Assembly: GCA_021325135.1 (NCBI GenBank)
Contig: JAJPHT010000012.1
Coordinates: forward strand, 1 to 62,286
Direction of reading: 5' to 3'
DNA length: 62,286 bases
Origin: Pseudomonadota bacterium
Lineage (GTDB): Archaea > Thermoplasmatota > SW-10-69-26 > JACQPN01 > JAJPHT01
Made by a program: the position numbers and the translations under genes. This document shows positions 1,182-16,286 of the stretch, piece after piece. The notes beneath the pieces were generated by a model. It had not been told where the DNA came from. It did not search any database and was given only the letters and a program-made list of their open reading frames with translations. Positions within the stretch are counted from its first letter, which is position 1. Every line of letters begins with the position of its first letter.

Positions 1182-2435
1182 TCACTTCCAGTTGCTTTCG
1201 CGTATCGACTGATACTGCGCTTGATAGCTCGAAGTTGAGTCCTGAGCAGGCTGCACGCGCCCTTCAACCGCCTTGACGAATGCGGGGACGAATGCAGGGC
1301 CGACGACTCCCCATCCTTGCTGTGCGGCGCCGCCGACAATCGGGACCGTGACGACGAACACCTTTCCGAGCACCGGGCTTTCCTCGGGTTCGCCAGTCGG
1401 ATTGAAGTCCGTCGGACCGAAGCGAATGGCGCTCGCGTTCGCCGCCTCTCGCATCTGGTGGGCGCAATCCGGACTGAGCGCCCGGCAGAATCCGGCTTCC
1501 CTCAACTGAGCCAATCCCTCTGCGAAGGCGCCCGCCGCGGTCGGAGTGCTGAAGCTCGTCCCGCTGCGCCAAGTGTAGTTCTCGGTACTCGTGGCCGTCG
1601 GTGCGAAGGCCGTAACGTTCGAGATGAAGTCCACGCCATGCGAACTGTCCGCAGACGTGCCGTTCGTGGATGGCTCGAAACCGCCAATGCAGATGATCCA
1701 CGGCGGCCCGCAAGTGTAACTTTGCATCGTCGGGCTTGGGTCGTTGCCCGCCGCCGCGACAACCAGTTTCCCTTCCGACGCTGCGAGGCGCGTCCCGTCA
1801 AGGTACGTCTGCATCTCGGGATGCAGGGACGGATCATCAGGAGGATTGCCGGGGTTTCCAAAGCTGATGCTGATGACATCTATCCAAGGCTGGTGTGCCG
1901 CCCATGCGACGCCGTTCGGCAAGCTGGGGTCGATTAGACAAGAGGTTGTGCAAAGGCCGCCCGAGCCCTGGATCGCCACGATCAGCGACGACTGCGCGAT
2001 CTTCGCCACCACGCCCGCGGTCGCGGTCCCGTGGCTGCTCGAATCATCGAGGATGAAGCTCCCCTTCGTCGTGTTGAGCATCGAGATAGCAACGACGCGA
2101 GTCCCCGCGAAATGGTACAACTGACCGGGCTTGAGGGAACTCCACATACCTTGGTCGGCCTCGATGCGATCCCCGAAGGAGCCCGTCTGAGAGAGGTTGA
2201 CCTCCGTGACCGGAACACCGATCATCCTTGCGACGGTGCCGTTGTCGAACTCGTGTGACCTGAATGCCTCGTGATAGGGGTTAATCCCTGAATCAACCAC
2301 GGCGACAACAACGGGCCTCACGACTACAGGTTGTGACCCGTTACTCGGGGCCGGCGGCTCCGAGGTGGTGCAACCGGCCAGCAAGAAAAGCGCCAGGAGG
2401 ACAGGCAAGAACGCCGCCGTTCCCCCGTGTCGCAT
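1182..2435 (-). CDS. Subtilisin-like S8 serine peptidase, lipoprotein
   Basis: Lipobox LLAGC; catalytic motifs VVDSG, HGTATAG, AAAGN, GTSFSTP; ATG 2435 chosen as start. Confidence 0.9.
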   Translation of the reverse strand: MRHGGTAAFLPVLLALFLLAGCTTSEPPAPSNGSQPVVVRPVVVAVVDSGINPYHEAFRSHEFDNGTVARMIGVPVTEVNLSQTGSFGDRIEADQGMWSSLKPGQLYHFAGTRVVAISMLNTTKGSFILDDSSSHGTATAGVVAKIAQSSLIVAIQGSGGLCTTSCLIDPSLPNGVAWAAHQPWIDVISISFGNPGNPPDDPSLHPEMQTYLDGTRLAASEGKLVVAAAGNDPSPTMQSYTCGPPWIICIGGFEPSTNGTSADSSHGVDFISNVTAFAPTATSTENYTWRSGTSFSTPTAAGAFAEGLAQLREAGFCRALSPDCAHQMREAANASAIRFGPTDFNPTGEPEESPVLGKVFVVTVPIVGGAAQQGWGVVGPAFVPAFVKAVEGRVQPAQDSTSSYQAQYQSIRESNWK

Positions 2436-2549
2436 GATGGCGAGACGACCGAACGACCTACAAGAACTTTGTTGCGCCGTACCCCTTGCAACAGGCGCCA
2501 AGAATGTTCAAATATGGCCCCCTGCCTCGGTAACAACGGGGTACCAAGC

Positions 2550-2804
2550 TTGAAGGCAGTTCTCCCTGCATTGACCACACTTTGTTTCCTGTTCCTCTCG
2601 GGGGTCGCCGCAGCCTCGCCCGGTGTCAAGATCGAGGTCATCGTCAGCTGCGACGGGGCCGATCCGGAGTCGTGCGTCTGCACCCTGCCGGGCGACCTCT
2701 GCGACGACGACTGCCCGATCAACGATCCGCACCTGCTGGCGAATTACGGCGACGACCTCCACCAGTGTCTTGCCGCCGTCCTTCCGTTCCCCCCGCCGAT
2801 CTGA
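2550..2804 (+). CDS. Small secreted Cys-rich acidic protein
   Basis: Signal-peptide-like N-terminus then 6 Cys; ends 12 bp before the next ATG; start uncertain (TTG 2550 or ATG 2514). Confidence 0.6.
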   Translation: MKAVLPALTTLCFLFLSGVAAASPGVKIEVIVSCDGADPESCVCTLPGDLCDDDCPINDPHLLANYGDDLHQCLAAVLPFPPPI

Positions 2805-2816
2805 AGGTGACTCCAC

Positions 2817-4340
2817 ATGACCCGGTGGGGAATCCTCTGCGTGGCTGCAATCCTCCTAGCTACGCAAGTCCCCACCGAGCCGGCAAGTGCTGGCGGTTCC
2901 GTCAACGCCACGGGCGCAAGCGTCGAAGTCCGCGACGGCTTCCAAGACTGCTCGCAACAGACGACGCACTTCTGCGAATACAACGTCTCGAACGGCAACG
3001 ATCCTGCGAATGCGACGATCGACGCCTATCAACGAATCGACTTCGTGGGCGTCACCGTCGATTCCACCGCCGTGAATCGTCTCCTTGGGTCGCACGTCGT
3101 CGGACGGCAATCGGTTCAGATCAACGGCAATAGCACTTACTTGCCTAACCCTCTCCTGCCGATGGTCAGCGAGGCTTGGACCGAGATTGACGCGCAGCGT
3201 CCCGGGCGATCCCTCCTCGACGTTGAGATGAGCCGTGAGAACGTTTCTCTCGTCTATCCGATGATCCGTTACAACACGTCAGAGCCGATCGGCTGGAATT
3301 GGCTCGCCTTCCCTTATCCAGATGACGGAGGGATCGGCTACGATCGGATCGGCCCGTACAACGCGCCCGAAGGCAACAGCACGGACGGATACCTCGAACA
3401 GGATCAGCGCCTTCTCTGCGACTACCCGGGGATCGACACCTACTGCAATCCGGTGGTTGGCGAGACGCGAGAAACGTTCACGGCCACGGCGCCGAACGTC
3501 ATCGTCGGCGCCGAGTTCTACAACGCTTCGATTTCGGTTCGTGAGGGCAACGTCTCCAACGCAACTTACTACTGGACAGGCTCAGATTGGGTGTTCTATC
3601 CGAGATATGATTCCGGCAACTTGCCTAGGATCGTGTTCGATTCTACGCCGTTCATCCATCAGAACTGGACGTTCACACCTCCAACGGATCAGCGACCCAT
3701 GATCCCGCCGAAGGCAGCGCCCACGCGGGGCACGACCGGCCCGCAGAGCGAGTCCGAACACACCGTCCCCAATTGGACTGTTGCGGTCGTTGCGGCTGCT
3801 GCCGGAGCCCTGCTCCTTGCTGCCGCAGCGGTCCTCTACTCTCGCTTCACGAGCAAGAACGCGCTTCTCGCCTCCAAGAGCCGCCAAGAACTCTTGGCGC
3901 TCATCGACGCGCATCCGGGCATATCTCCTTCAGAAGCCGCAGCCAAGATGGGCTGCCGGAGAAACAATATCATGCACCATGCCCGCGTGCTGGAGAAGGC
4001 GGCGTTCATCAAGATCGTCGCCACGAATGGGCGCGCGTTCTTCTACCGATCCGGCCAGGAAGTTCCACCCCAGGAAATCGCGGTCGCGCATCCCGTGGCG
4101 CAAGCGATCCTCCGGCGCATCCGCGACGGCGGGCCGGCAACGATGCAGGAGCTTCTCGCTGCCTGTGGAGACACGCCGCAACGCACCTGCTACTATCATG
4201 TTGCACGCCTCGTGAACGCTGGCCTTCTCACCGTGGAAACAGTCGGTGAGAGTCGGAAGATCGGGCTCCCTTCGGAGAATAGCCCCGAGGCTCCGCGGTC
4301 TGTCGCCCCCGCGACTCTCACCGCGCCCGCGCCGATCTAG
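2817..4340 (+). CDS. Membrane-anchored transcriptional regulator (extracellular domain, TM helix, tandem wHTH)
   Basis: Signal peptide; TM VAVVAAAAGALLLAAAAVLY; then two ArsR-like wHTH motifs (HPGISPSEAAAKMG..HHARVLE and ..TCYYHVARLVNAGL). Confidence 0.85.
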   Translation: MTRWGILCVAAILLATQVPTEPASAGGSVNATGASVEVRDGFQDCSQQTTHFCEYNVSNGNDPANATIDAYQRIDFVGVTVDSTAVNRLLGSHVVGRQSVQINGNSTYLPNPLLPMVSEAWTEIDAQRPGRSLLDVEMSRENVSLVYPMIRYNTSEPIGWNWLAFPYPDDGGIGYDRIGPYNAPEGNSTDGYLEQDQRLLCDYPGIDTYCNPVVGETRETFTATAPNVIVGAEFYNASISVREGNVSNATYYWTGSDWVFYPRYDSGNLPRIVFDSTPFIHQNWTFTPPTDQRPMIPPKAAPTRGTTGPQSESEHTVPNWTVAVVAAAAGALLLAAAAVLYSRFTSKNALLASKSRQELLALIDAHPGISPSEAAAKMGCRRNNIMHHARVLEKAAFIKIVATNGRAFFYRSGQEVPPQEIAVAHPVAQAILRRIRDGGPATMQELLAACGDTPQRTCYYHVARLVNAGLLTVETVGESRKIGLPSENSPEAPRSVAPATLTAPAPI

Positions 4341-4426
4341 CGCGGGGTCTGATTGCGCGCGAACTTTTGCAAGCTGCGACAAATATTGGCTTGGTAACGC
4401 GCGTGGTTGCGCTCCTCGGTGACTGA

Positions 4427-4924
4427 TTGAACGTCCCAAGGAACCTGCTCTGTCTGACCATCGCCGCCTGCCTCGCCATGTTCGCCGCGCCGCAGATCAC
4501 GGCCCTCCCCACGGAGGCCGACGTGTTCGTGTCCGCGCCCGTCCATGCGTTCTCCACGACGGACGCCTACTCCGGCTTCGTCACCGACACCTGCGTCCAG
4601 GCGACCGGCGTCCCGCTCGATGATAGCGCCTTCGGCGGCTTGATCCGCGAGGCGGCGAACTCCCAGGGCGGCGTGATCTACTCCGACCCCGGCACGCTCG
4701 ACCACTACCGCAGCGGCGGGAGCCCCACGAACCTCCCCGTGGACGGGGAGGGCCAGGGCTCGACCGGCGGCATGGACCCGTGCTGCGTGTGCGGCATCAT
4801 CAACCCCGACCAGTCGATCCGCGGCTGCGTCGCGCTCTCCAAGCCGTGCTGCTGCTACTCGGAGATCCACACCGACCTGTCGATCGTTTGCCTCTGCCAG
4901 GGGGGCGAGGGATGCAGCAAGTGA
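4427..4924 (+). CDS. Secreted protein with Cys-rich C-terminus (paralog of 5225-5662)
   Basis: Signal peptide, TDAY motif, C-terminal CCVC..PCCC..CLC. Confidence 0.75.
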   Translation: MNVPRNLLCLTIAACLAMFAAPQITALPTEADVFVSAPVHAFSTTDAYSGFVTDTCVQATGVPLDDSAFGGLIREAANSQGGVIYSDPGTLDHYRSGGSPTNLPVDGEGQGSTGGMDPCCVCGIINPDQSIRGCVALSKPCCCYSEIHTDLSIVCLCQGGEGCSK

Positions 4925-5172
4925 AGCTCCTTCCGCTCGCGCTCCTCGCGCTCCTCGTCGTCCCGCTGGCCCTGGCCTCCCCTGCCTCCAAGGTCACAGG
5001 CCAGCTGGGCGACCCGTACCCGAGGACCCCGCCCGGAACGCTCTGCGTGGTCGAGCAGAACCAGGAGGGCCTTCTGCCGTCCTTCTACGTGTACTGCTGC
5101 CCCTACATGCAGATCAACCCGCCCGACGGGCCGTACATCATGTGCGTGTACCCGATGGGCAAGCACCCCTGA
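4921..5172 (+). CDS. Small secreted Cys/Pro-rich protein
   Basis: GTG overlaps the upstream TGA; MKLLPLALLALLVVPLALA signal peptide; 4 Cys. Confidence 0.75.
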   Translation: MKLLPLALLALLVVPLALASPASKVTGQLGDPYPRTPPGTLCVVEQNQEGLLPSFYVYCCPYMQINPPDGPYIMCVYPMGKHP

Positions 5173-5224
5173 CGCGGGTCGCGTCAGGGGACCTCCCCTC
5201 TTTCCATCTCCAAGGTGAACCCCC

Positions 5225-5662
5225 ATGAAGCTCCCTCTCCTCGTCGCCGCCGCCTTCGCCGTGTGCCTCCCGATCGCCTACGCGCAGGAGGTCGGCGGAA
5301 GCCCCGTCCCCTCCGTGCCCCCTCCCGCCGCGGACCTCATCTCCGCGACCGACGCCTACGCGGTCGCCACGATCGACGGCTGCTCCCACGCCGCCAACTT
5401 CGATGCCCAGGACGGCGGCCTCGCCGTTTACTACGGCAGCCCCACCGCAGCGGGTACTCCCCTCGCTCTCGACGGCCCCGCCAAGGCGATGCTGTCTGAG
5501 CAGGTCAACATCTGCTGCGCGTGCGGCCCGCATATTTGCGATCACTGGTGGTGCTTCTTCACCACCACTTGCGAAGTGTTCGGAGACGGCCCCTGCTGCT
5601 GCACGGCCATCATCGAACCGGACGGCACGACCCATTGCTACTGCGCGGTCGGCAAGTGCTGA
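5225..5662 (+). CDS. Secreted protein with Cys-rich C-terminus
   Basis: Signal peptide, TDAY motif, CCAC..PCCC..CYC tail. Confidence 0.8.
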   Translation: MKLPLLVAAAFAVCLPIAYAQEVGGSPVPSVPPPAADLISATDAYAVATIDGCSHAANFDAQDGGLAVYYGSPTAAGTPLALDGPAKAMLSEQVNICCACGPHICDHWWCFFTTTCEVFGDGPCCCTAIIEPDGTTHCYCAVGKC

Positions 5663-5675
5663 CGGAGGGGAGCAT

Positions 5676-6596
5676 ATGACCACCCGAAAAGAACTCGTCG
5701 CCGTGGGCGTCCTCGCCGCGCTCCTCATCGTGGGCGCCGTCGCGGTCGCGCTCAACTCCAACAGCGCGGAAGCGACTCACGCCAACGCACCCGCGCAAGC
5801 GATCGCCCTCAACGCGACCGCCGACGCCAACCACTCGATCCAGTGGGACGACAAGGTGTTCTTCCGCTACACCATGTTCAACGCGAGCGGGAAGCCCATC
5901 TTCACGAACCAGTACGCCTCGGCCCTCATCATCAACAACACGGATCCGCTGTATCTGATCAGCGAGATCGAGGACTACAAGGTGAGCAACCTCACCTTGG
6001 GCGCCTACAACGTGGGCCAACCCTTTGGCACACCCTTTGAGGCGTCGTTCATCGGCCATCACGCGGGCGAAACCTACGTCACGCCTCTGATCGCCGCGAA
6101 CGACACCGTGACGGGCTCGACGGGCGTCCACGTCACGCTGACCCGCGTCTCCAAGGATTTCCCCATGCGCGAGAGCGTGCCCTCTGCCGCCTTCCGGCAG
6201 CGGTTCCCCAACGCCACGGAGGGCTCCGTCGTCCAACTCAACCCGCGGTACTTCGTCACCGTCGAGGCGATGAACGACACTGTGACGACGTACCGCTACC
6301 TCGTCCACGACGGCGAGCAGCACCCGTACCCCGAGCTTGGCGAGTTCGCCAACCTGACGACGATCGTCAGCGCCGACCGGACGACGTTCCATGACAGGAT
6401 CGACATTCCGACCGGCGCCGCGTTCTTCCGCAAGAACGATCACGTTCTGAACCTCACGCACGGCTCGTACTACGTGCGCGGCGTCACGCCTGATTCGATC
6501 CTGCTCGACCAACTGAAGGCCCCGTGGTACGCGCACCTCTTCGAGGACGTGTTCTTCGTCGTGGAGGTCGTGGAGGTCCAGCCCGCGGCCCGGTAG
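5676..6596 (+). CDS. Membrane-anchored exported protein, possibly a degenerate FKBP-type PPIase fold
   Basis: GGAGG RBS; N-terminal TM; DDKVFFRYTMFNASGKPIFTN and a C-terminal FFVVEVVEV resemble FKBP strands. Confidence 0.6.
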   Translation: MTTRKELVAVGVLAALLIVGAVAVALNSNSAEATHANAPAQAIALNATADANHSIQWDDKVFFRYTMFNASGKPIFTNQYASALIINNTDPLYLISEIEDYKVSNLTLGAYNVGQPFGTPFEASFIGHHAGETYVTPLIAANDTVTGSTGVHVTLTRVSKDFPMRESVPSAAFRQRFPNATEGSVVQLNPRYFVTVEAMNDTVTTYRYLVHDGEQHPYPELGEFANLTTIVSADRTTFHDRIDIPTGAAFFRKNDHVLNLTHGSYYVRGVTPDSILLDQLKAPWYAHLFEDVFFVVEVVEVQPAAR

Positions 6597-6644
6597 GTTC
6601 ATCGACGGCGGCAGGGATCGGCCAAGGAGGAGGGAACCAGAGCG

Positions 6645-7676
6645 ATGCAAGTCCGACATGGATCATTCGTCGTCTTACTGGTTACTCTCCTCCTCTCGCC
6701 CTTCGTCACCGCCCTTTGCGACGACTCGACAGTGACTCCCGGGATTCGCAGCTGCTCCCCAGGGCCGCAGCAAGCCTGCTACGGGATTCGCCCCGGGGCG
6801 CTGTTCCACAGTGAGAACTGGACCGACTGCACGGCCAGCTTCGTCTTTGTTGCACCCGAAGGCGTGTTCATGGAAACTGCGGCGCATTGTGTTCACGAAA
6901 AAGGGCAGAAGATTTGGTTCTACTACCCGAACGCGAGCGCCGCGCCTACCAGTTACGCCGATCTAGAGAGCCGCGCACCAGACGCAACCGTCGCGTTTAT
7001 CGCCCCGGGATGGACGCAAGTCGGGTCGGGCGACTTCCGCCGCGATCAGGACTTCGCGCTCCTCCGGCTGGGCGATCACGTCCTGCGCGACGTGGCGCCC
7101 GACGTATGCGGCGGACGCGGCCCGACAGGCATCTACAACGAGACGGGCAGCAAACAGCACGTCCTGTATTTCTACGGTCACGGTGTCGGCTTCAACGGCG
7201 CGATGGAAGCTCGCCAAGGCGTAGGCCCCACATGGGACGGTGGCGCGTTGTTCTACGCGACCGCCACCCTGTCTGACGGCGACAGCGGCGGGCCGTGGCT
7301 GACGCAGGAGGGCTTGGCGATCGGCCACGAATCCGGCGGCACGCCGCCCGCGCAGAGTACCAACGGGAGCGAAGTCGGCGTCCACATAGGCACCGTGATA
7401 GCATCCGCCCGATCCGCCGGGCTGTCACTTCGGTTGCTCCTCGCAGGACAGACTGCGAGCGTAGAATATGCGAAGGAGCGCCCCGCCGGGCCGACGCCTC
7501 CGACCACGAACGAAACCCCAAGCCCGACGGTCAGCGCGCCATCAAGCCCTGCGGCGCCGACGGCCCCCGCGAATGGCCCGGTCAGCAGCAGTCCGCGGGC
7601 CGTTCCATCCGCGGATGTGCCTGCCGCCGTCGCCTGCGCGATGGGTGCGGCCCTCCTGTCAAAGCGGCGGCGATAG
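6645..7676 (+). CDS. Secreted trypsin-like (S1) serine protease with C-terminal anchor
   Basis: TAAHC, DFAL, GDSGG triad motifs; Pro/Thr linker; hydrophobic tail ending KRRR. Confidence 0.88.
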   Translation: MQVRHGSFVVLLVTLLLSPFVTALCDDSTVTPGIRSCSPGPQQACYGIRPGALFHSENWTDCTASFVFVAPEGVFMETAAHCVHEKGQKIWFYYPNASAAPTSYADLESRAPDATVAFIAPGWTQVGSGDFRRDQDFALLRLGDHVLRDVAPDVCGGRGPTGIYNETGSKQHVLYFYGHGVGFNGAMEARQGVGPTWDGGALFYATATLSDGDSGGPWLTQEGLAIGHESGGTPPAQSTNGSEVGVHIGTVIASARSAGLSLRLLLAGQTASVEYAKERPAGPTPPTTNETPSPTVSAPSSPAAPTAPANGPVSSSPRAVPSADVPAAVACAMGAALLSKRRR

Positions 7677-7767
7677 CAACCTAGCAACCCCGAGGCACGC
7701 ACCCCATTGAAGTTGTAGCTTCAGCCTCCGCACCCAACCCCACATTCCAGCTTGAGCCCTGATCTGC

Positions 7768-8661
7768 ATGAGTTTCGATTTCATCACGCTTGTTCAACTT
7801 CTGCCGCCTATCGTGCGCTTTCTCGTCGCCGGATGGTTGTTCAACAAAGGTCGTCCAGTTCCCATCGCCATTGGCCTTGTCGTCTTGGCCGCGGGCATCG
7901 TTGGCCTCGGGAACCGTCTCGTTGATCTTGGCTTCCCCGAGTCGTGGCGGACCTTTGCGCTGACGACCTATCCGTTGCTCTTGCCGGCCTTGGTGTTCGT
8001 TTGGATGGCGTTCCACCCCTGGCAAATACAGAACCCGAGGGCGAAGGCCGTTCTTGCCGTGGCGGGTGTCGTGGCGCTCGCGTTGGCGGCATGGCTCATC
8101 AACGACTCGTGCGCGTGGTTCTGTTCTACCAAGGCCGGCCCGCACGCTGGCCCCATCTATGTGCTGGCGTCAATGCTATCTTTCGCCTACCTCTGGCTCG
8201 CGCTCCTGCTCGCCCGCGACTCGATCAAAGCAGAACCTATCCTCGACCCCGCCGCGGGCGAAAGCGCCTCAATCATCGTCGCATGGACGGGCCTCAGTTT
8301 CTTTGGCATTATCGCAGCCAACGCAATCATGGGCTATTTCAACTACGGAGGCCAATGGTTCGGCAACAGTGTTGAAGTCCTGCTCGGCCTGGGCGATCTT
8401 GCGGTCCTCGTATGGGTTGCGTGGCCGTGGGGCCGGTCCATACCGGGGTTCCGCGCAGGCTGGATTCTCCTCTGGGGCGGCTTCGCCGTCCTCCTCGGAA
8501 TGATCCGCGCTGGCCTCACGGACAGCCTATGGGGCGAGGACAGCGACCTTCCCGTGATCCTCTACTCCCTGTGGGGCCTGGGCGTCACCGTCGCGCTCTA
8601 CGTCGCCCTTTCCAAGTCCGGCGCCTTCTTGGAGGAGGCACCTCCGGAAGCCATGCCCTAA
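7768..8661 (+). CDS. Multi-pass membrane protein, unknown function
   Basis: About 8-9 hydrophobic segments. Confidence 0.8.
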   Translation: MSFDFITLVQLLPPIVRFLVAGWLFNKGRPVPIAIGLVVLAAGIVGLGNRLVDLGFPESWRTFALTTYPLLLPALVFVWMAFHPWQIQNPRAKAVLAVAGVVALALAAWLINDSCAWFCSTKAGPHAGPIYVLASMLSFAYLWLALLLARDSIKAEPILDPAAGESASIIVAWTGLSFFGIIAANAIMGYFNYGGQWFGNSVEVLLGLGDLAVLVWVAWPWGRSIPGFRAGWILLWGGFAVLLGMIRAGLTDSLWGEDSDLPVILYSLWGLGVTVALYVALSKSGAFLEEAPPEAMP

Positions 8662-8672
8662 GCTCGGCCTGC

Positions 8673-8813
8673 CAGCCCAAGTTTTGATCCTATCTTGACT
8701 TCAAAAGTTGGGCTGCAATCCATCATCAGGCACCCACCGACGCACGTTCAGTCCTCTACTTGCTGAAAGCAATAGTAGAGGACTAGTAACGTGGTCGGCT
8801 GGGTGGAACGCCT
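8673..8813 (+). repeat. Bipartite hairpin unit A
   Basis: Stem 8673-8687/8701-8715 with loop TCCTATCTTGACT; 86-nt rod hairpin 8728-8813. Confidence 0.9.
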
Positions 8814-9340
8814 CTGAGGGATCGCTGCCCGTCCCCAACGCAGCCCCGACAGGCCGACCCCATGCGAAGCCAGCGGACGCACGCGCAGCATCGGAAGCGC
8901 GAAGCGCCAGGATCGCGCAGGCGCCACGCTCGATGCCTCGCGGCTCCCGCCCGCCGCGCTCGCGCCGGATCGCGCCTTGTGCGCGCTCCCGGACGGCTTC
9001 TCCATGATCCCCGCGCCCCGCTGCGTCGGCGTCGTCGTGACGATCTACGCGACCCCGCCCGCGCGCTCGACCCCGCCCGCTGTGAAGGGCGGCTCGCCCG
9101 TGTTGTGGGCGAAAGTGAACGCCGACCTCGCCACCAGAGCGCCGTCCCGAGTGCAACCCTTCACGTCATCCTCTGGCCTTTGGCGTGCCGATGGTCGAGT
9201 TCCTGCCCGTGCGCGTCGGACTCCTGGCCGGCGGCGCCCTGGGCGGTGTCGTCGCGCGCCGCATCGCCCTCCGGGTCCGCCTCCGCCTACGCCTGGAGGT
9301 CGAGGCCGGCGACCCGCCGCCCCCGTGATCGCGCCGGCAC

Positions 9341-9482
9341 CCGACCTCTTCGCCCGCGCCATCTTGACTTGGGAAGAGTCGGCAACGCGATTCACGCCCG
9401 CCGCGGACGAATAGGCGCCCCCTATACGCTCCCCTTACCAAAGGGAGCGTATATGGGAGGCGCCACTTCCGTGACGCGGCGG
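9341..9482 (+). repeat. Bipartite hairpin unit D
   Basis: Bulged stem with loop ending CCATCTTGACT (9369); ~85-nt hairpin 9398-9482 with core TATACGCTCCC/GGGAGCGTATA. Confidence 0.8.
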
Positions 9483-9563
9483 ACCGACCGTCGAAGCGCT
9501 GGGCCATGACTCGCCTCCTCTGCCGACTCATCCCCCCGCCCCGCCTTCTCTCCTCGACGCCTC

Positions 9564-9601
9564 CGCGCGGCATGGTTCACCGAAACCCATGATATTGGAC
9601 C
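9564..9601 (+). promoter_or_regulatory. Repeated promoter/operator, copy 1
   Basis: 36/38 identical to 10264-10301; GATATT lies 29 bp before the ATG in both copies. Confidence 0.7.
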
Positions 9602-9619
9602 TCGACGTACCGGCTTGCC

Positions 9620-10243
9620 ATGCGTCGAGTCCAGCGCCGAACGCTCAGGCAAGACGAGCGCGTGCGCGAAGCCTACACGCGCGCTCCCAACGACTATGGC
9701 TTGGCGATCTACGCGGACCTTGGCACGCGCGCCCAGGCGCGCAACAGCCGCAAGCGCATGGGCCTCCCATCGCTCGCGCGCGCGCACCGTCCCCGCAACC
9801 AGAAGGAGCACGACGCGCGCCGCCGCCAGCTTGTCGAACACCCCGAGTGGTCGAGCGCCCAGCACGCCGAGGCGCGCGGCATCAGGCCCAGCGCGTGGCG
9901 TCAATGGCGCTGGCGCGAAGCCCACAAGCCTCTGACTACGCCGCCCACGGAGGCGCACGCCGCGAGCTGGGGCCAGCTCGTAGAGCAAGCCCTCCGCGCC
10001 GGCTACCTGCCCAGCCGCCGCACGCGCCTGCTCTGGTGGCGCCGCCGCCCACCCGTCGTGTTCCTGCTCCGCTTGGCGATGCTCCCGCCCCGCCTCGCCT
10101 GGATCGCGCCCCCGACCGCGCCGCCCGTGCTCCTCCGCGCGGACCTCGCCGCCGAGCTTGCACACCTCGCCACGCACGGCCTGAGCGCCGCGCTGGAGGA
10201 GCCCGACACCGACGCGGGGGCGATGCCCGCGAGCGTGATCTAG
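9620..10243 (+). CDS. Basic putative DNA-binding (HTH-like) protein
   Basis: HPEWSSAQHAEARGIRPSAWRQWR resembles an HTH; follows the repeated promoter. Confidence 0.65.
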   Translation: MRRVQRRTLRQDERVREAYTRAPNDYGLAIYADLGTRAQARNSRKRMGLPSLARAHRPRNQKEHDARRRQLVEHPEWSSAQHAEARGIRPSAWRQWRWREAHKPLTTPPTEAHAASWGQLVEQALRAGYLPSRRTRLLWWRRRPPVVFLLRLAMLPPRLAWIAPPTAPPVLLRADLAAELAHLATHGLSAALEEPDTDAGAMPASVI

Positions 10244-10263
10244 TCGCCCATGCCCTCGACGCT

Positions 10264-10301
10264 CGCGCGGCATGGTTGACCGTAACCCATGATATTGGAC
10301 C
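10264..10301 (+). promoter_or_regulatory. Repeated promoter/operator, copy 2
   Basis: CGCGCGGCATGGTTGACCGTAACCCATGATATTGGACC, same spacing to ATG 10320 as copy 1 has to ATG 9620. Confidence 0.7.
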
Positions 10302-10439
10302 ACGCCGTAGGCCAGGCGCATGGACGTTCACCAGGCGCCCGCGCTCCTCCTCTCCCTCCTCGTCGGCTCCCTCGTCCTCGTCGCGCTCCTGGGCCTCCTG
10401 CCAGTCGGCCCCGCCCGCGCCGGTTGCCTTGCCGGTGAA

Positions 10440-10820
10440 GATCCCGACGACGATCCCCGCCGCCGTGCGCGTCACGATCCCGACGCACACGACGTGCGCG
10501 GACTCCGTCACGATCTGGACGGACTCGCGCTCTACGATCCGCCCCGCGCGCTTCTCCGCGGCGAGGATCGCCACGATCCCCACGAACACCGCCACGGGCC
10601 GGACGATCCGCGCCAGGATCACGACGAACCCCGCCGCGTTCGCCACGATCCCGACGCACGCGCCCACGATCCACACGACGAACCGCACGCGGTTCCCGTC
10701 AGAATCGAGCCCGATCCCGTCAGGAAGTACGATCCGACTCCGGCTGGATCGCACTTCGCTGCGTCGGAATCGAGTTCGATTCCGTCAGGAAGTGCGATCC
10801 CGGATCGCACTTTTGGATCG
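10440..10820. repeat. ACGATC/GATC-rich low-complexity repeat tract
   Basis: About 17 GATC by hand count, 9 of them as ACGATC, with ACGATC spacings all multiples of 3. Confidence 0.8.
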
Positions 10821-11238
10821 GACTCGACGCACCCGAAGCCGAGCCCTCGACGTGCCGCGCGCCTGTGGGCCTGGCTTGCGTCACGTTCGGCACACCCGCT
10901 CCGAAGGTTCAAGATGCCTCACGCGAACAAGGATGGCGGCGCTCGCCGCCTTCGACGCGGCGAGGACAACCACGCGCCGCCGGCCATGCCCGGCGCGCGG
11001 GGGCACACCGCCCGCGAGCATTCGGGCCGCGGGATGGGAGCCGGCACGGTTCTACCGCCGGCCTCGCCCACCCGCAAAGGCGGGTCCAACTTCCTCGCCC
11101 TCGTCTCGTCGGCTGCGATCCACGCCAAGGATCGTGACCAGTCCTTGCCGACGCTTCGGCCCTCCCCTAGCTCGCCCCATGTCTCACCCTCGACCGTCGC
11201 ACCCGCAACGCGCGCCTGCGAGCCTTCGCGCAAGCCCA

Positions 11239-11356
11239 GGACCCGAGCTTGGCTCGTATTCTTGACTCCAACTCGGGTCCATTCTCATGGCAATTCGCGC
11301 CGTGGCCCCTTGCCGAATAGTAGAACCCTAGTGCTACTATTCGGACTGGGCCACGG
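11239..11356 (+). repeat. Bipartite hairpin unit C
   Basis: GGACCCGAG(C)TTGG/CCAACTCGGGTCC stem with loop CTCGTATTCTTGACT; long hairpin 11300-11356. Confidence 0.85.
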
Positions 11357-11560
11357 ACGCAGCGATAATCCCACTGGAAACCGGAGCCCGAAACCAACCC
11401 ATGACCCACGGCCCGGACCCGATCTAGGCCGAGCGGAACCAAGATGCACAACCTCGCAGCGAACCGACCGCCGCATGGTCCTTCGCCGCGCCCCCGGCTT
11501 CCTCCTCACGATCTGCACCGCGATCCGGCGCACGCGCGCCGCCTGCTCTCGAAGCCCTCG

Positions 11561-11697
11561 GCCAACTTTGGGGCGCTATCCTGACTCCCCAAAGTTGGCA
11601 AACCCGAAAAAAGGCACCCGCCGTCCCACGTCGAGTATCCTACCTATCGAAGATAGTAGTAGGATACTAGTAACGTGGTCGGCAGGGTGGAACGCCT
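11561..11697 (+). repeat. Bipartite hairpin unit B (homolog of unit A)
   Basis: Perfect 13-bp stem with loop CGCTATCCTGACT; 86-nt hairpin 11612-11697. Confidence 0.9.
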
Positions 11698-12113
11698 CTT
11701 CGGGATCGACGCCACACCCAACACCACCCCCAACCTTCGGGCCGGTGCGGAAGCCGGAAGTAGTACCGGAACGCGACCCCGCCCCCGTGTCCTTCGCTCT
11801 CCTCGTCGCCACGATCCCCGCGGCCCCCTCGCCCGCCATCCTCGCCAAGCTCGCCGCCCTCCTGGGCCTCGCCCTGGTCGCCCTCGTCCTGCTCCCGCCC
11901 CGGCGCGAGCGCGACCGCGCGCCGCCCCACCAGGGCGACGACGCGCACGACGACGGCGGCGCGGAGGCGGCCCGCGTGCTGCACGAGGACCACGGCGCGC
12001 ACGTCGGCGCGACGATCTACGCGACGACACAACCCGCCTTGTGTTCGACGCCACCCACGCCAAGGCGGGGCCGGCGCCAGGACCCAGGCCAGGAAAATCT
12101 CTCTCTCCGCGCG

Positions 12114-12451
12114 CTCCTCCCCTTTCTTGACTCAATGGGTAGCGCGCACGACGACGCCTCCTCCGGCGCCGTCACCGTGACGGAGAGCCCGCGCTCCCGG
12201 CCCAAGCTGGGCCGCGCCCTCTCATGGACTGAAGAAAGAGTAGAGATTCAGCAAAAAAAGAAAAACCGCGCCGCCTCGGCCCGCGCCCAGGTGCCGGCTC
12301 CTGGCACCGGCTCCCGGCTCGTCCTGGGGCTCCAGAAGATGTGTGAGAGATGCGGAACGCTACTCTTTCTTCATTCCATGAGGCGCGCGAGCCATCATGC
12401 CTCCGCAGGATCGCCGCGCCGCCTCTCATGGAGTCAAGACAAGGGGAGAGC
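12114..12451. repeat. Four related ~20-bp motifs in alternating orientation
   Basis: 12221-12243 and 12360-12382 are 22/23 inverted repeats; ~12120 (+) and ~12427-12450 (-) both contain TCTTGACTC. Confidence 0.8.
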
Positions 12452-12567: not shown

Positions 12568-12909
12568 ATGAGACTCCCCGCCTTCGCGCTCCTCGCGCTC
12601 GCGGCGATCCTCGCGCCCACCCGGAAGGAGGCCGGCGCCATGCTGGAGCCTGACGGCCTCTCCTCGATCCTGCCCGACGCCGAGGAGCGCCGCCGCTACC
12701 TCTCGACGCTCCACCGCCTGTCAATGGGGCACGTCACGCCTGCGCGCCTCGCGGAGCGCGCGAAGCTCATGCACCGCGCCGCCCAGGTCCGCGCCGCGCT
12801 GCGCGCTGACCCGCGCTTCACCCGCGTCCGCGAGCCCGCGGGCGGTCCCGAACGCTATGCGCTTCGGCCCGAGCACCGCCACGGGACGCGCCAGGAGGCG
12901 AAGGCGTGA
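12568..12909 (+). CDS. Hypothetical protein
   Basis: High-GC3 codon usage; stop overlaps the next GTG; alternative start at ATG 12640 after GGAGG. Confidence 0.65.
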   Translation: MRLPAFALLALAAILAPTRKEAGAMLEPDGLSSILPDAEERRRYLSTLHRLSMGHVTPARLAERAKLMHRAAQVRAALRADPRFTRVREPAGGPERYALRPEHRHGTRQEAKA

Positions 12910-13082
12910 CGCGCTATCGTTTCGCCTTGTGGCCGCCCTCCGAAGCCTGGAGGAACGGCTACCTGTGGGGCGCCCCGCTCCCAACCTTCCGCGCGAAGTA
13001 CCCCGAGAAGGTCAAGGAACACGGCGCTCCCTTGCGCGTGTGGGACACGGACAACGACAAGAAGCAGGCCGAGGCGGACTAG
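12906..13082 (+). CDS. Small hypothetical protein (58 aa, not in ORF track)
   Basis: GTGA coupling to the upstream gene; MTRYRFALWPPSEAWRNGYLWGAPLPTFRAKYPEKVKEHGAPLRVWDTDNDKKQAEAD. Confidence 0.6.
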   Translation: MTRYRFALWPPSEAWRNGYLWGAPLPTFRAKYPEKVKEHGAPLRVWDTDNDKKQAEAD

Positions 13083-13639: not shown

Positions 13640-13881
13640 AGGCGAGCCGCGAAGCAGGGCGGCCCCTCTTGATCCCATCGAACCTGCACCGCCCGCGAAG
13701 CCAAAAGCGCACGCGCCAAGGGCAAGGCTCGCGCCCGTTGAAGAGGAGGAGCCACCGCGTCCCTGTGTGGGAGGCCGGAGGCGCAAGACCCAAGAAGGAA
13801 GGCCACGGATGGCCTGCCCGGGCCGGGGTCTGAAGCCTCCTCGCACAACCTTCTTCCCCGGCCTCCTACTCCCTGCGCGAT

Positions 13882-15051
13882 CTAGACCGCGCCCGCCTTC
13901 ACCGCGCGCAGCAGGCCCGCCACCGTCTGCGCGGTGGCACGGCTTGGCATCGCCCGCTCCCAAATCTCACGCGCACCCACCACCGGCATACAGCGGTCGT
14001 ACCAATAGCGAACCTCGGGGATGCCCTCGACCTTGCCAAACTTCGTGTAGTGGCCTTGCGTCGTGTCGGGCGTGTTCTCGTTGCGGCTCAACAGCGAGTC
14101 GCCGCGCAGCACGGCCACGATATGCGAGGGGCAGCCGGAGGGCGCGGTGGGCCGCTTGCGCTTCAAGCAGCTGGTGAAGCTCCTGCGCGCCGTGTGCATC
14201 GTGATCTCCGTCTCGCGGTTCTTCACGGTCTTGGCAAGCGGGCTGTTGGCGACGATCCGCTTGATCCACTTGCCAAGCTGGTTCGCGGTAATGTGCCGGT
14301 TCTTGCCCTGCGGGCTCGGCATCAAGTAAGGGTTGCCGGGGTGGTCGCGCTTGTTGCGCTCGACCTTGAGCCGCAGGAAAAACTCTAGCTCCTCGTCAAA
14401 GTAGGCGCGCAGGTAGGTGCGGCGCGGGTGGGGATCAAGCTCGATGGTACGCGATTGCCAGTCGATCCGATCCATGCGGATTCCGGCAAACTCCTCTCGG
14501 CGCACGCCGAGCTTGAACGGGCCGAGGACGGTCAAGAAGTCGTCCAACGACTCGCAGCCAAGGAGGAGTTGCGCGACTTCGCCTTCATCGAGCGCGCGCA
14601 GGTCGGGATGCAGCGCGGCGCGGTTCTTGCGCTTGAACACGCGGATGAGCGGGAAGAACGGGTTCTGCGTGGCGAGGCCGCGCACGTCGCGCAGGTAGTT
14701 GAACAGGCTGCTTCCCTGGAGAATGTGAAGAAGGACGCTCGTGGCCTTCAACGCGCCCTTCTTCGTGCGGCCTTCGTAGTCCGCCGTGGGGAGCCACGAG
14801 ACGTAACGCTGCGCCTCGGTCCGGTCGATGCTCAGAAGGTGCAGCTTCTGGCGCTCGCAATACTCCACAAGATGCTTGCTCGTCTTGCGCCACGCCTTGA
14901 GCGTGTCCGACACGCATTCGACTTCCGCGACCTTGAGCCAGTCGTCCACAAGCTGACGGCTCGTGTATTGGCGCCGCGCTGCCTCCGCAAGCTTCGCTTG
15001 GTACTCGCGGTTAAGCTCCTCAATCGTGGCGATACCCCGCGCGTTCGCCAC
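13882..15051 (-). CDS. Tyrosine recombinase/integrase, archaeal LRGD type
   Basis: N-terminal SAM-like core-binding region; GVRREE (R), HTARR (HxxR), LRGD in place of LLGH, GHYTK (Y). Confidence 0.92.
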   Translation of the reverse strand: MANARGIATIEELNREYQAKLAEAARRQYTSRQLVDDWLKVAEVECVSDTLKAWRKTSKHLVEYCERQKLHLLSIDRTEAQRYVSWLPTADYEGRTKKGALKATSVLLHILQGSSLFNYLRDVRGLATQNPFFPLIRVFKRKNRAALHPDLRALDEGEVAQLLLGCESLDDFLTVLGPFKLGVRREEFAGIRMDRIDWQSRTIELDPHPRRTYLRAYFDEELEFFLRLKVERNKRDHPGNPYLMPSPQGKNRHITANQLGKWIKRIVANSPLAKTVKNRETEITMHTARRSFTSCLKRKRPTAPSGCPSHIVAVLRGDSLLSRNENTPDTTQGHYTKFGKVEGIPEVRYWYDRCMPVVGAREIWERAMPSRATAQTVAGLLRAVKAGAV

Positions 15052-15825
15052 CTAGGCCACCTCCTCCATCGGCTCGGGCTGCTTCGCCAAGCGATACCGC
15101 ATGTCCTTGCCCTTCGTGATGAGGTCAAGCCTGCTCGCGCCCTTGATCGCGTCCCCCGCCTCAACCTCCGTCAAGCCCTCCGACATGAGGCGTTCGACCA
15201 ACTCGGGGCGGCGCAGGCCCGCCGACACGGACAGGGCCTTGACGATCAGGAGCGTGGGCCGGGGGATCGCCTCGACTTCCGCGCCCGCGCTCATCGCGCG
15301 CTCCCGGTTGCCCTGGTCGGTCCTGGCGAGGTCCACGACGTAGCCCGCCAAGCTCTGCGCGCGCTCCGTCGCGTCGGTGAGGCGGCGCTCCAAGTCCGCC
15401 GCGTGCTTCTCCGCGTCGTCCCGGTCCCGCGTGGCGTCGTCGCGCTCCCGCGTGAGCTCTAGGACCCGCTTCTCAAGCTCGGCCACCCGGCCCGCGTCCT
15501 GCGGGTTCCCCATGAGTCCCGCCGCGAAGCTCGGATCGCGCAGGCGGCAATACTGGAGGAAAAGCAGGGGGTCCTTGCGCGCGCCCAGGATGAAGCGCGC
15601 GTATGCGCTCGCGTCGGGCCGCCGCTGGCTCCCCCCTGGGCTGTGCTGGCGGGCCTCCTCCTCAAAGGCCGCCTTCTCCTGGGCGCTGAGATAGACCTTC
15701 AGGAAGATGCGCTTCCCGCTCGCCTCCTCTTCCTCGACGGGCGCCGGGGCGGGGGCGGGAAGCGGGTGGTGGTGAAGGGCGCTGGCACGCTTGGCGACGA
15801 ACATAGGCTTCTTGTCTCCGGGCAT
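15052..15825 (-). CDS. Integrase-associated RHH + coiled-coil + wHTH protein
   Basis: LKVYLSAQEKAAFEEEA..SAYARFIL RHH-like segment, heptad region, C-terminal wHTH; TAG abuts the integrase GTG; start uncertain. Confidence 0.75.
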   Translation of the reverse strand: MPGDKKPMFVAKRASALHHHPLPAPAPAPVEEEEASGKRIFLKVYLSAQEKAAFEEEARQHSPGGSQRRPDASAYARFILGARKDPLLFLQYCRLRDPSFAAGLMGNPQDAGRVAELEKRVLELTRERDDATRDRDDAEKHAADLERRLTDATERAQSLAGYVVDLARTDQGNRERAMSAGAEVEAIPRPTLLIVKALSVSAGLRRPELVERLMSEGLTEVEAGDAIKGASRLDLITKGKDMRYRLAKQPEPMEEVA

Positions 15826-15954: not shown

Positions 15955-16093
15955 CTACGACTACCCGCGGCGCATCACGCTCTCGCACCTCGCGGACCGC
16001 CTGGGCATCGCGAAGTCGACGCTCTCGCAGTCGCTCACCATGATCGAAAGCGAGGTCATGAAGACGGCCCGCGCTCCCCCGCGCCACGCTTGA
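15955..16093 (+). pseudogene. 3' remnant of a Bat-like HTH_10 transcriptional regulator
   Basis: YDYPRRITLSHLADRLGIAKSTLSQSL matches HTH_10 (GYYDxPR..LA..LGI.KST); no credible upstream coding part. Confidence 0.8.
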
Positions 16094-16123
16094 GGTCTCC
16101 TGTTCTCTTCTCTCCCTTCTCTT

Positions 16124-16273
16124 GGGGGACTCCGTCCCCCAAACCCCCACAACACCCGAATCTCAGAATCTCCGAATCAGCGCCGCGACAAACACTCGCG
16201 AGTGGTTTTCTCCTCGGGGATTCCGAGATTCGGAGATTCGGGTTTCGCGGGGGTCTGGGGGCGGCAGCCCCCA
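16124..16273. repeat. REP-like palindromic element
   Basis: ACCCGAATCTCAGAATCTCCGAATC ... GATTCCGAGATTCGGAGATTCGGGT inverted arms; GGGGACTCCGTCCCCCAAACCCC also occurs at ~43095. Confidence 0.7.
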
Positions 16274-16286
16274 GGAGATGAAGATA

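Follow-up and report, generated by a model that had tools for sequence, protein, structure and literature searches.

The motif TATCTTG^A is the nick motif of the double-strand origins (dso) of two rolling-circle plasmids, pGT5 of Pyrococcus abyssi (PMC9569500) and pC194 (PMC5037232). In pGT5, the dso lies inside the rep coding region with the single-strand origin (sso) upstream (PMC9569500), and neither plasmid has been described as carrying a multi-origin array. The transposon IS91 accepts both CTTG and GTTC as target words (PMC13181058), while Staphylococcus aureus plasmids of the pWBG749 family keep two to three subtypes of the origin of transfer (oriT) for relaxases acting in trans (PMC8136818). 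Archaeal hitcher elements, according to a recent review, have lagged in discovery (PMC11389934). Here, we analyzed a stretch of 62,286 nucleotides (nt; contig JAJPHT010000012.1 of assembly GCA_021325135.1, hereafter the window) from what the names of close protein relatives indicate to be a high-GC Thermoplasmatota archaeon, in which an integrative island of about 16 kb carries a tandem array of four bipartite hairpin units. Judged from sequence and predicted folding, these units are very probably rolling-circle origins of an HUH Rep family (related to IS91 and pC194, with a Zn ribbon) that serves integrative viruses and plasmids of Thermoplasmatota, residing here in an island that has no rep gene.

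The window is the start of a contig (C26) that overlaps the end of contig C46 by 41 nt, a join confirmed by a second assembly. The island is an insertion of 16,153 nt bounded by a 10-bp direct repeat, with attachment sites at C46:216586-216595 (attL) and window 15955-15964 (attR). An assembly artifact is unlikely: the whole element recurs at 99.99% identity in a second public assembly (an ENA contig of 350,741 nt), and a Logan contig matches units 1 and 2 at 100%, although both possibly derive from the same sample.

Hairpin units of the array

Each unit consists of a dso hairpin holding the predicted nick and a long imperfect hairpin that follows it:
8673-8716, + strand: unit 1 dso (nick-site) hairpin; nick predicted at G8697^A8698 by analogy with pGT5 (PMC9569500)
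8729-8830, + strand: unit 1 long hairpin (8729-8812) and a 3' tail motif as in Rep-linked origins
9341-9382, + strand: unit 2 dso hairpin; predicted nick G9366^A9367
9398-9482, + strand: unit 2 long hairpin; 74% identity, with 3 compensatory pairs, to unit A of a second array (C45, below)
11239-11280, + strand: unit 3 dso hairpin; predicted nick G11264^A11265; closest to C45 units C and D
11297-11360, + strand: unit 3 long hairpin, the shortest (64 nt)
11561-11599, + strand: unit 4 dso hairpin, the last origin of the array; predicted nick G11583^A11584
11613-11715, + strand: unit 4 long hairpin (11613-11696) and 3' tail motif

The original prediction, made from the letters of the window, had described four stem-loops with a common loop ending, each followed by a long hairpin, and folding confirmed them: as single-stranded DNA (ssDNA), units 1-4 had z-scores of -8.49, -6.88, -8.37, and -8.48, and 0/200 shuffles were as stable. 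A covariance model scored them at 37.6, 29.2, 19.9 (E 0.045), and 38.3 bits, respectively. Successive nicks are spaced 669, 1898, and 319 nt apart. The nick motif is exact in unit 1, as it is in most Rep-linked units, and units 2-4 carry one- to two-base variants of it. The long-hairpin block of unit 1 is a paralog of that of unit 4 (70% identity, 7 compensatory pairs).

A weaker fifth copy had also been proposed at 12109-12147 (+), and it was rejected: its z-score is -1.96, no long hairpin follows, and its similarity to true units is at most 0.14 against a shuffled ceiling of 0.11. It is a separate motif with an inverted copy at 12420-12451 and 90% identity to C7:23841-23879. The same contig holds a probable spindle-shaped-virus-like provirus (L004, C7:14675-23282) encoding a two-helix hydrophobic protein, large anchored proteins, and a Zot-like ATPase, which has motifs in common with window 12116-12156, 12341-12388, and 13818-13867.

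Bulged, long imperfect hairpins near an integrase could suggest attC-like cassette sites for the tyrosine recombinase or, alternatively, an array of structured non-coding RNAs, both of which had been raised at the outset. These readings are already largely refuted and we regard them as barely credible. The R'' and R' core boxes of attC are absent on both strands in all eight units of the two arrays, and the apparent attachment site of the recombinase is the separate 10-bp repeat at the element ends. The window units contain 0 G-T pairs and show no strand bias, and Rfam returned nothing above threshold for the units, only two sub-threshold chance matches. Moreover, the same integrase family occurs without units in an element on contig C19, whereas solo units accompany rep.

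A Rep family and its linked origins

The loop had been likened to a nick site of the pC194/pGT5 type for an HUH enzyme, a proposal now strengthened by a cognate Rep family. Elsewhere in the genome, on contig C39, one unit of the same structure lies ~370 nt upstream of a 313-aa open reading frame (ORF), the rep gene (L001:8496-9437). Homologous reps were gathered from congeners and metagenomes and counted if enough upstream DNA was available, and in 18/18 such near-clade loci exactly one unit was found 198-936 nt upstream of the rep match. Upstream of more distant Reps (L043, L055-L057), no clear unit was found. The similarity of the origins tracks that of the Reps (Mantel test, Spearman rho 0.80, permutation p 2e-4, n = 18), a correlation inflated by non-independence among kin. 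The nick loop is conserved whereas stem sequences differ, with compensatory change at 11/11 modeled dso stem pairs in an alignment fitted to the covariance model.

The Rep family has a four-cysteine Zn ribbon and the conserved motifs FTLP, HPH, and YS. Its matches to Pfam Rep_1 are weak (best E 0.051 and 0.0007, under the curated cut-off where shown), as are those to Lactobacillus plasmid Reps and an IS91 transposase; Zn_Tnp_IS91 was matched in 6/38 family members (best E 1.8e-7) and Y2_Tnp in 2/38. The Rep profile had no sequence match in the PDB. In Foldseek searches with the predicted structure, HUH relaxases ranked first (E 6e-3, weak), with Rep of adeno-associated virus and IS608-type transposases lower and all E-values above 0.001.

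Like the dso of pGT5 and the pC194 family, these origins combine the TATCTTG^A motif with an HUH Rep of weak Rep_1 similarity; unlike them, they place the motif in the loop of a variable, covarying stem of 11-14 bp, and their long hairpin follows 3' of the nick, still upstream of rep. They resemble IS91-family transposons in CTTG at the cut, including one natural variant in which GTTC replaces CTTG at the nick (L018:4678-4716), and in the Zn_Tnp_IS91-like similarity seen in part of the Rep family. Nevertheless, an IS91-type insertion at the nick was rejected, as the element itself supplies the 5' arm, which is not target DNA: it base-pairs with the 3' arm and covaries with it (11/11 pairs). 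The elements also carry tyrosine integrases, unlike IS91, and no terIS was identified. The Rep-Arvir origin of the betapleolipovirus SNJ2 (PMC13107129) is likewise a bipartite hairpin origin of an archaeal integrative rolling-circle element, but its Rep is Rep_trans-like rather than HUH and its origin lies downstream of rep (PMC13107129); assignment to that type was rejected for the present family, whose Rep has an HUH fold and whose origin is upstream of rep. On this evidence, the origin is a new addition to the pC194/pGT5/IS91-related kind as far as sequence can tell. An uncultured Thermoplasmatota lineage thereby gains an origin-Rep family that is defined by sequence and whose nick base is predicted; the lineage lacks genetic tools, and the origin-Rep pairs are candidates for compatible replicons in it.

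Downstream of the C39 rep lies a virus-like module with a Zot/viral-type ATPase and membrane-anchored proteins, conserved in metagenomic loci L012, L013, L017, and L024. No phage match was found for the ATPase, which groups with viral Zot-type ATPases. C39-type elements are possibly an undescribed group of enveloped archaeal viruses. The virus-like integrated element (L001:8100-18000, C39:17869-47900) sits in a larger island with an integrase, in which there are also prim-pol-like and ArdC-like genes.

That the HUH protein is instead a relaxase, its helpers conjugative, and the array a set of oriT mimics for mobilization seems to us very improbable, though still less so than attC sites or structured RNAs. 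Relaxases are the top fold matches, the long hairpin 3' of the nick resembles leading-region hairpins, and the ArdC-like gene of the C39 island would fit. However, the Rep sequence relates to Rep_1/IS91 and not to MOB families, the linked ATPase groups with the viral Zot type, and small elements such as L038 consist of origin, rep, and integrase only.

Two further observations concern this family. A Rep homolog (L052, G000 C45:83584-84489, - strand; profile E 2e-15) has PRLH as its HUH motif and lacks the motif-III tyrosine; it lies among housekeeping genes with no origin upstream, and is apparently inactive and possibly domesticated. Defense-like cargo (ThiF, RelA/SpoT, Schlafen AlbA_2, OLD-TOPRIM with UvrD, AAA_15) lies directly 5' of the origins in L012, L015, and L018, which suggests that the 5' flank of the origin is a hot spot for cargo.

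Origin capture in related islands

A six-frame hidden Markov model (HMM) search with a broad Rep profile detected neither rep nor a rep remnant in the window island or in a second island, on C45, in agreement with the initial remark that no HUH enzyme was visible. A Rep beyond the left edge, which had been suggested, is excluded because the element ends ~200 nt left of the window with no rep there. An autonomous relative is found on a metagenomic contig, L050, with the same integrase family (56%), the partner gene, and the two small ORFs; at the position of the array and in the same orientation, it carries one origin and a 405-aa rep. Given this layout, the window island appears to derive from such an element by loss of rep. 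Unit 4 matches the L050 origin in position and orientation and is possibly the former origin of the element itself.

The C45 island encodes an integrase of another family, occupies a site found empty in a congener, and carries four units, A-D. It has in common with the window island the left end, the block of unit 2/A with its promoter, and the sequence right of the array, which indicates shared ancestry, although the origin sets differ. Grouped by similarity, units 1 and 4 belong together, as do 2 and A, and 3, C, and D, and the counterpart of B is the resident C39 origin (0.89). Each array holds three origin subtypes. For unit 2, the homolog of the dso is unit A and the closest Rep-linked origins are those of L038/L040. 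Homology between unit copies reaches ~24 nt 5' of the nick.

Unit B is the most informative copy. Compared with C39, its dso hairpin is 86% and its long-hairpin block 95.5% identical, whereas the leader is 53% and the first 40 rep codons 50% identical; two intact elements share 90% identity over those codons. These identities show unit B, at the level of sequence comparison, to be a captured block of origin, leader, and rep start in which the gene decayed and the origin was kept. Decay of the leader and rep start but not of the origin points to selection on the origin after capture. The original prediction of tandem rolling-circle mini-elements was half right: the segments do not resemble self-contained cassettes but look like an origin with its leader and a truncated gene start, taken from different source elements, the pattern shown for unit B. 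Besides a pair of related elements, one autonomous and one Rep-less, the comparison yields a clear example of an origin captured and then selectively retained.

Rolling-circle elements that repeatedly inserted at an existing origin and were later deleted might alternatively have left functionless origin stubs. This account of the arrays as neutral debris would explain the decayed rep start behind unit B, an insertion of ~46 nt in the dso loop of unit A, and the restriction of known arrays to one genome. Yet decay ends sharply at the origin boundary (95% vs 50%), and stems are intact in 7/8 array units, with compensatory changes between related copies, and we consider the account improbable.

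A similar degree of doubt, slightly greater, applies to the release of mini-circles, the idea of the original prediction, whereby Rep would start at one unit and end at the next nick site, so that ssDNA circles of 0.2-1.9 kb amplify the small genes between. All units have the same orientation and share the nick motif, one segment carries ORFs under their own promoter, and such circles would be a probable by-product if termination were promiscuous. The dso arms of different units would mismatch, however, and chimeric stems, the expected product of shuffling at the nick, were found in none of the eight units of either array. Unit order is the same in two assemblies, and the shortest segments (213 and 319 nt) have no evident gene.

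Proposed replication in trans by helper Reps

The purpose that we infer for the array is use in trans: an origin-collecting hitchhiker island replicated by helper Reps is the best reading, and we consider it about evenly poised between right and wrong. It is also the simplest, since Rep-specific origins are kept in an element able to excise but unable to replicate itself. The ancestor of the island may have been an L050-like self-replicating element that then lost rep; further origins would have arrived from other elements, each in a block with its leader and a truncated gene start. After excision by the island's own integrase, any helper virus or plasmid with a matching Rep could replicate it and perhaps lead to its export, the resident C39 element being a candidate helper. 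Rep would cut at TTG^AC in the first hairpin, and on the displaced strand the long hairpin would fold to serve either as a second-strand priming site (sso) or as a Rep-binding element. Several origin subtypes would open the island to more helpers, in the way that oriT mimics act in conjugation.

Like the oriT mimics of the pWBG749 family, the island is a non-autonomous element with captured origin subtypes and no HUH enzyme of its own; those, however, are transfer origins on bacterial plasmids, whereas here replication origins lie in an archaeal island and their use in trans is proposed. The island works like an oriT-mimic hitcher without being a member of that group, as the helper ATPase is of the viral Zot type and the Rep is Rep_1/IS91-like. 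Reliance on a helper virus equipped with an ATPase-based morphogenesis module, as proposed here, also marks the archaeal elements pSSVx, pSSVi, and SRCEs (bioRxiv 10.1101/2025.02.15.638363). Nonetheless, what pSSVx and SRCEs borrow is the virion, each having retained a replication protein, and in this they differ from the present island, which has no Rep and keeps origins only.

Several points weigh against replication by helpers. No Rep cognate to units 1-4 was found in this genome, which is 94% complete, and these units reach a similarity of only 0.16-0.20 to the best Rep-linked origins (shuffled ceiling 0.11). Arrays were found in one genome only, the high identity of unit B could stem from gene conversion, and excision of the island, free circles, and packaging are all predictions. 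The main difficulty concerns termination: if the shared nick motif suffices for it, copying halts at the next unit and only unit 4 copies the whole circle; units 1-3 would then give mini-circles only, and copying from unit 4 would replace the array by a chimeric origin. No chimeric stem was seen in any of the eight array units, which suggests that termination is specific or that the units are seldom used. Whether tandem, diverged rolling-circle origins can keep initiation and termination specific is a question now open to test.

Origin-specific termination would be unnecessary if the origins were baits that hold several rolling-circle viruses in check, either by binding or covalently trapping their incoming Reps or by provoking abortive nicking of the chromosome. 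Such a decoy defense, which we rate as unlikely but as the strongest of the alternatives, accounts for captured origins under selection while rep fragments decay, and for the mix of subtypes with intact, non-chimeric stems; defense-type genes also adjoin origins in related islands. A single chromosomal copy would be a weak sponge, though, and the resident C39 element coexists with a copy of its own origin in C45. A pure bait also needs no long hairpin, yet that part is the best kept (95.5% vs 86% for the dso hairpin).

Overall, the balance tips slightly toward a class of archaeal hitchhiker islands that have no replication protein of their own and collect the origins of several unrelated rolling-circle viruses and plasmids. 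The array would then both document the helpers used in the past and act as a multi-key for replication and spread, or for disarming helpers. In the literature searched, coverage of which was incomplete, no description of a multi-origin Rep-less archaeal island was found.

Distribution of units and arrays

A structural scan of the 3.77-Mb genome gave eight matches, seven of them true units, in three places (the window, the C45 array, and the C39 origin), whereas the reversed-genome control gave two matches and no cluster. A candidate unit on C24 lies inside a coding gene and was dropped. A looser, fold-based genome scan was too noisy for use, and a pattern scan of genome contigs gave chance matches, with 0/80 listed loci fitting the covariance model. 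The covariance-model scan suggested with the original prediction, extended to 21 genomes of the class with 150 candidates scored per genome, found units in the same genus only and arrays in this genome only. With 150 candidates scored per genome and several units at contig ends, this does not show that arrays are absent elsewhere. IMG/VR viral contigs contained no relatives of Rep or of the unit; 22 pattern matches from the viral contig search were discarded, having neither stem nor rep.

Integrase relatives (L045-L049, L051, and C19) had no unit in their available DNA, several of these contigs ending early. The C19 element (L003, C19:29400-29800) is a sister with the same integrase and small ORFs, without rep and origin, and carries a short motif repeated about four times in the gap corresponding to the array. 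In L083:54-1508 (G003 C161), an origin at the contig start is followed by an integrase-like gene and not by rep; this origin could be the end of another array.

Gene content and boundaries of the element

The element disrupts a bacterio-opsin-activator-like helix-turn-helix (HTH) gene, the homolog of which is intact in a congener. It runs from a left-end block through cargo and the array to two small ORFs and, on the opposite strand, a tyrosine integrase with its partner gene:
11-363, strand unassigned: left-end block, with 90% identity to its counterpart in the C45 array island
1182-8661, strand unassigned: cargo without rep (subtilase, HTH regulator, trypsin-like protease, small secreted and membrane proteins)
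9191-9328, + strand: 45-aa hydrophobic ORF stopping just 5' of unit 2, called as a gene in the second assembly
9564-9609, + strand: promoter-like 46-mer, copy 1, present also after unit A in the C45 array
9620-10243, + strand: 207-aa ORF, HTH-repeat DNA-binding as a weak lead (score 0.83)
10264-10309, + strand: promoter-like 46-mer, copy 2, preceding an ORF with a hydrophobic start at 10320 that is common to the C45 array
12568-13082, + strand: two small ORFs (113 aa and 58 aa), located 3' of rep in L050, with 73% DNA identity over 400 nt
13882-15051, - strand: tyrosine integrase (LRGD type), 389 aa (PF00589, E 1.3e-5; phrog_1, E 2.3e-16)
15052-15825, - strand: integrase-coupled partner ORF, kept alongside the integrase in relatives
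15955-15964, + strand: attR, 10-bp direct repeat, its attL copy just left of the window
15965-16093, + strand: C-terminal half of the split HTH gene, the N-terminal half being on C46

The repeat that had been noted as a promoter for the ORFs of one segment proved real, the promoter-like 46-mer being duplicated at 91% identity. A homolog search with the 207-aa ORF found none outside this genome. At window 10400-10830, a low-complexity tract in a long open frame holds GATC at 39.5/kb, compared with 3.5 in the remaining window. Just outside attR, a long palindromic repeat with many genome copies (window 16096-16278) belongs to a family resembling repetitive extragenic palindromes or miniature inverted-repeat transposable elements (REP/MITE-like) and is unrelated to the units.

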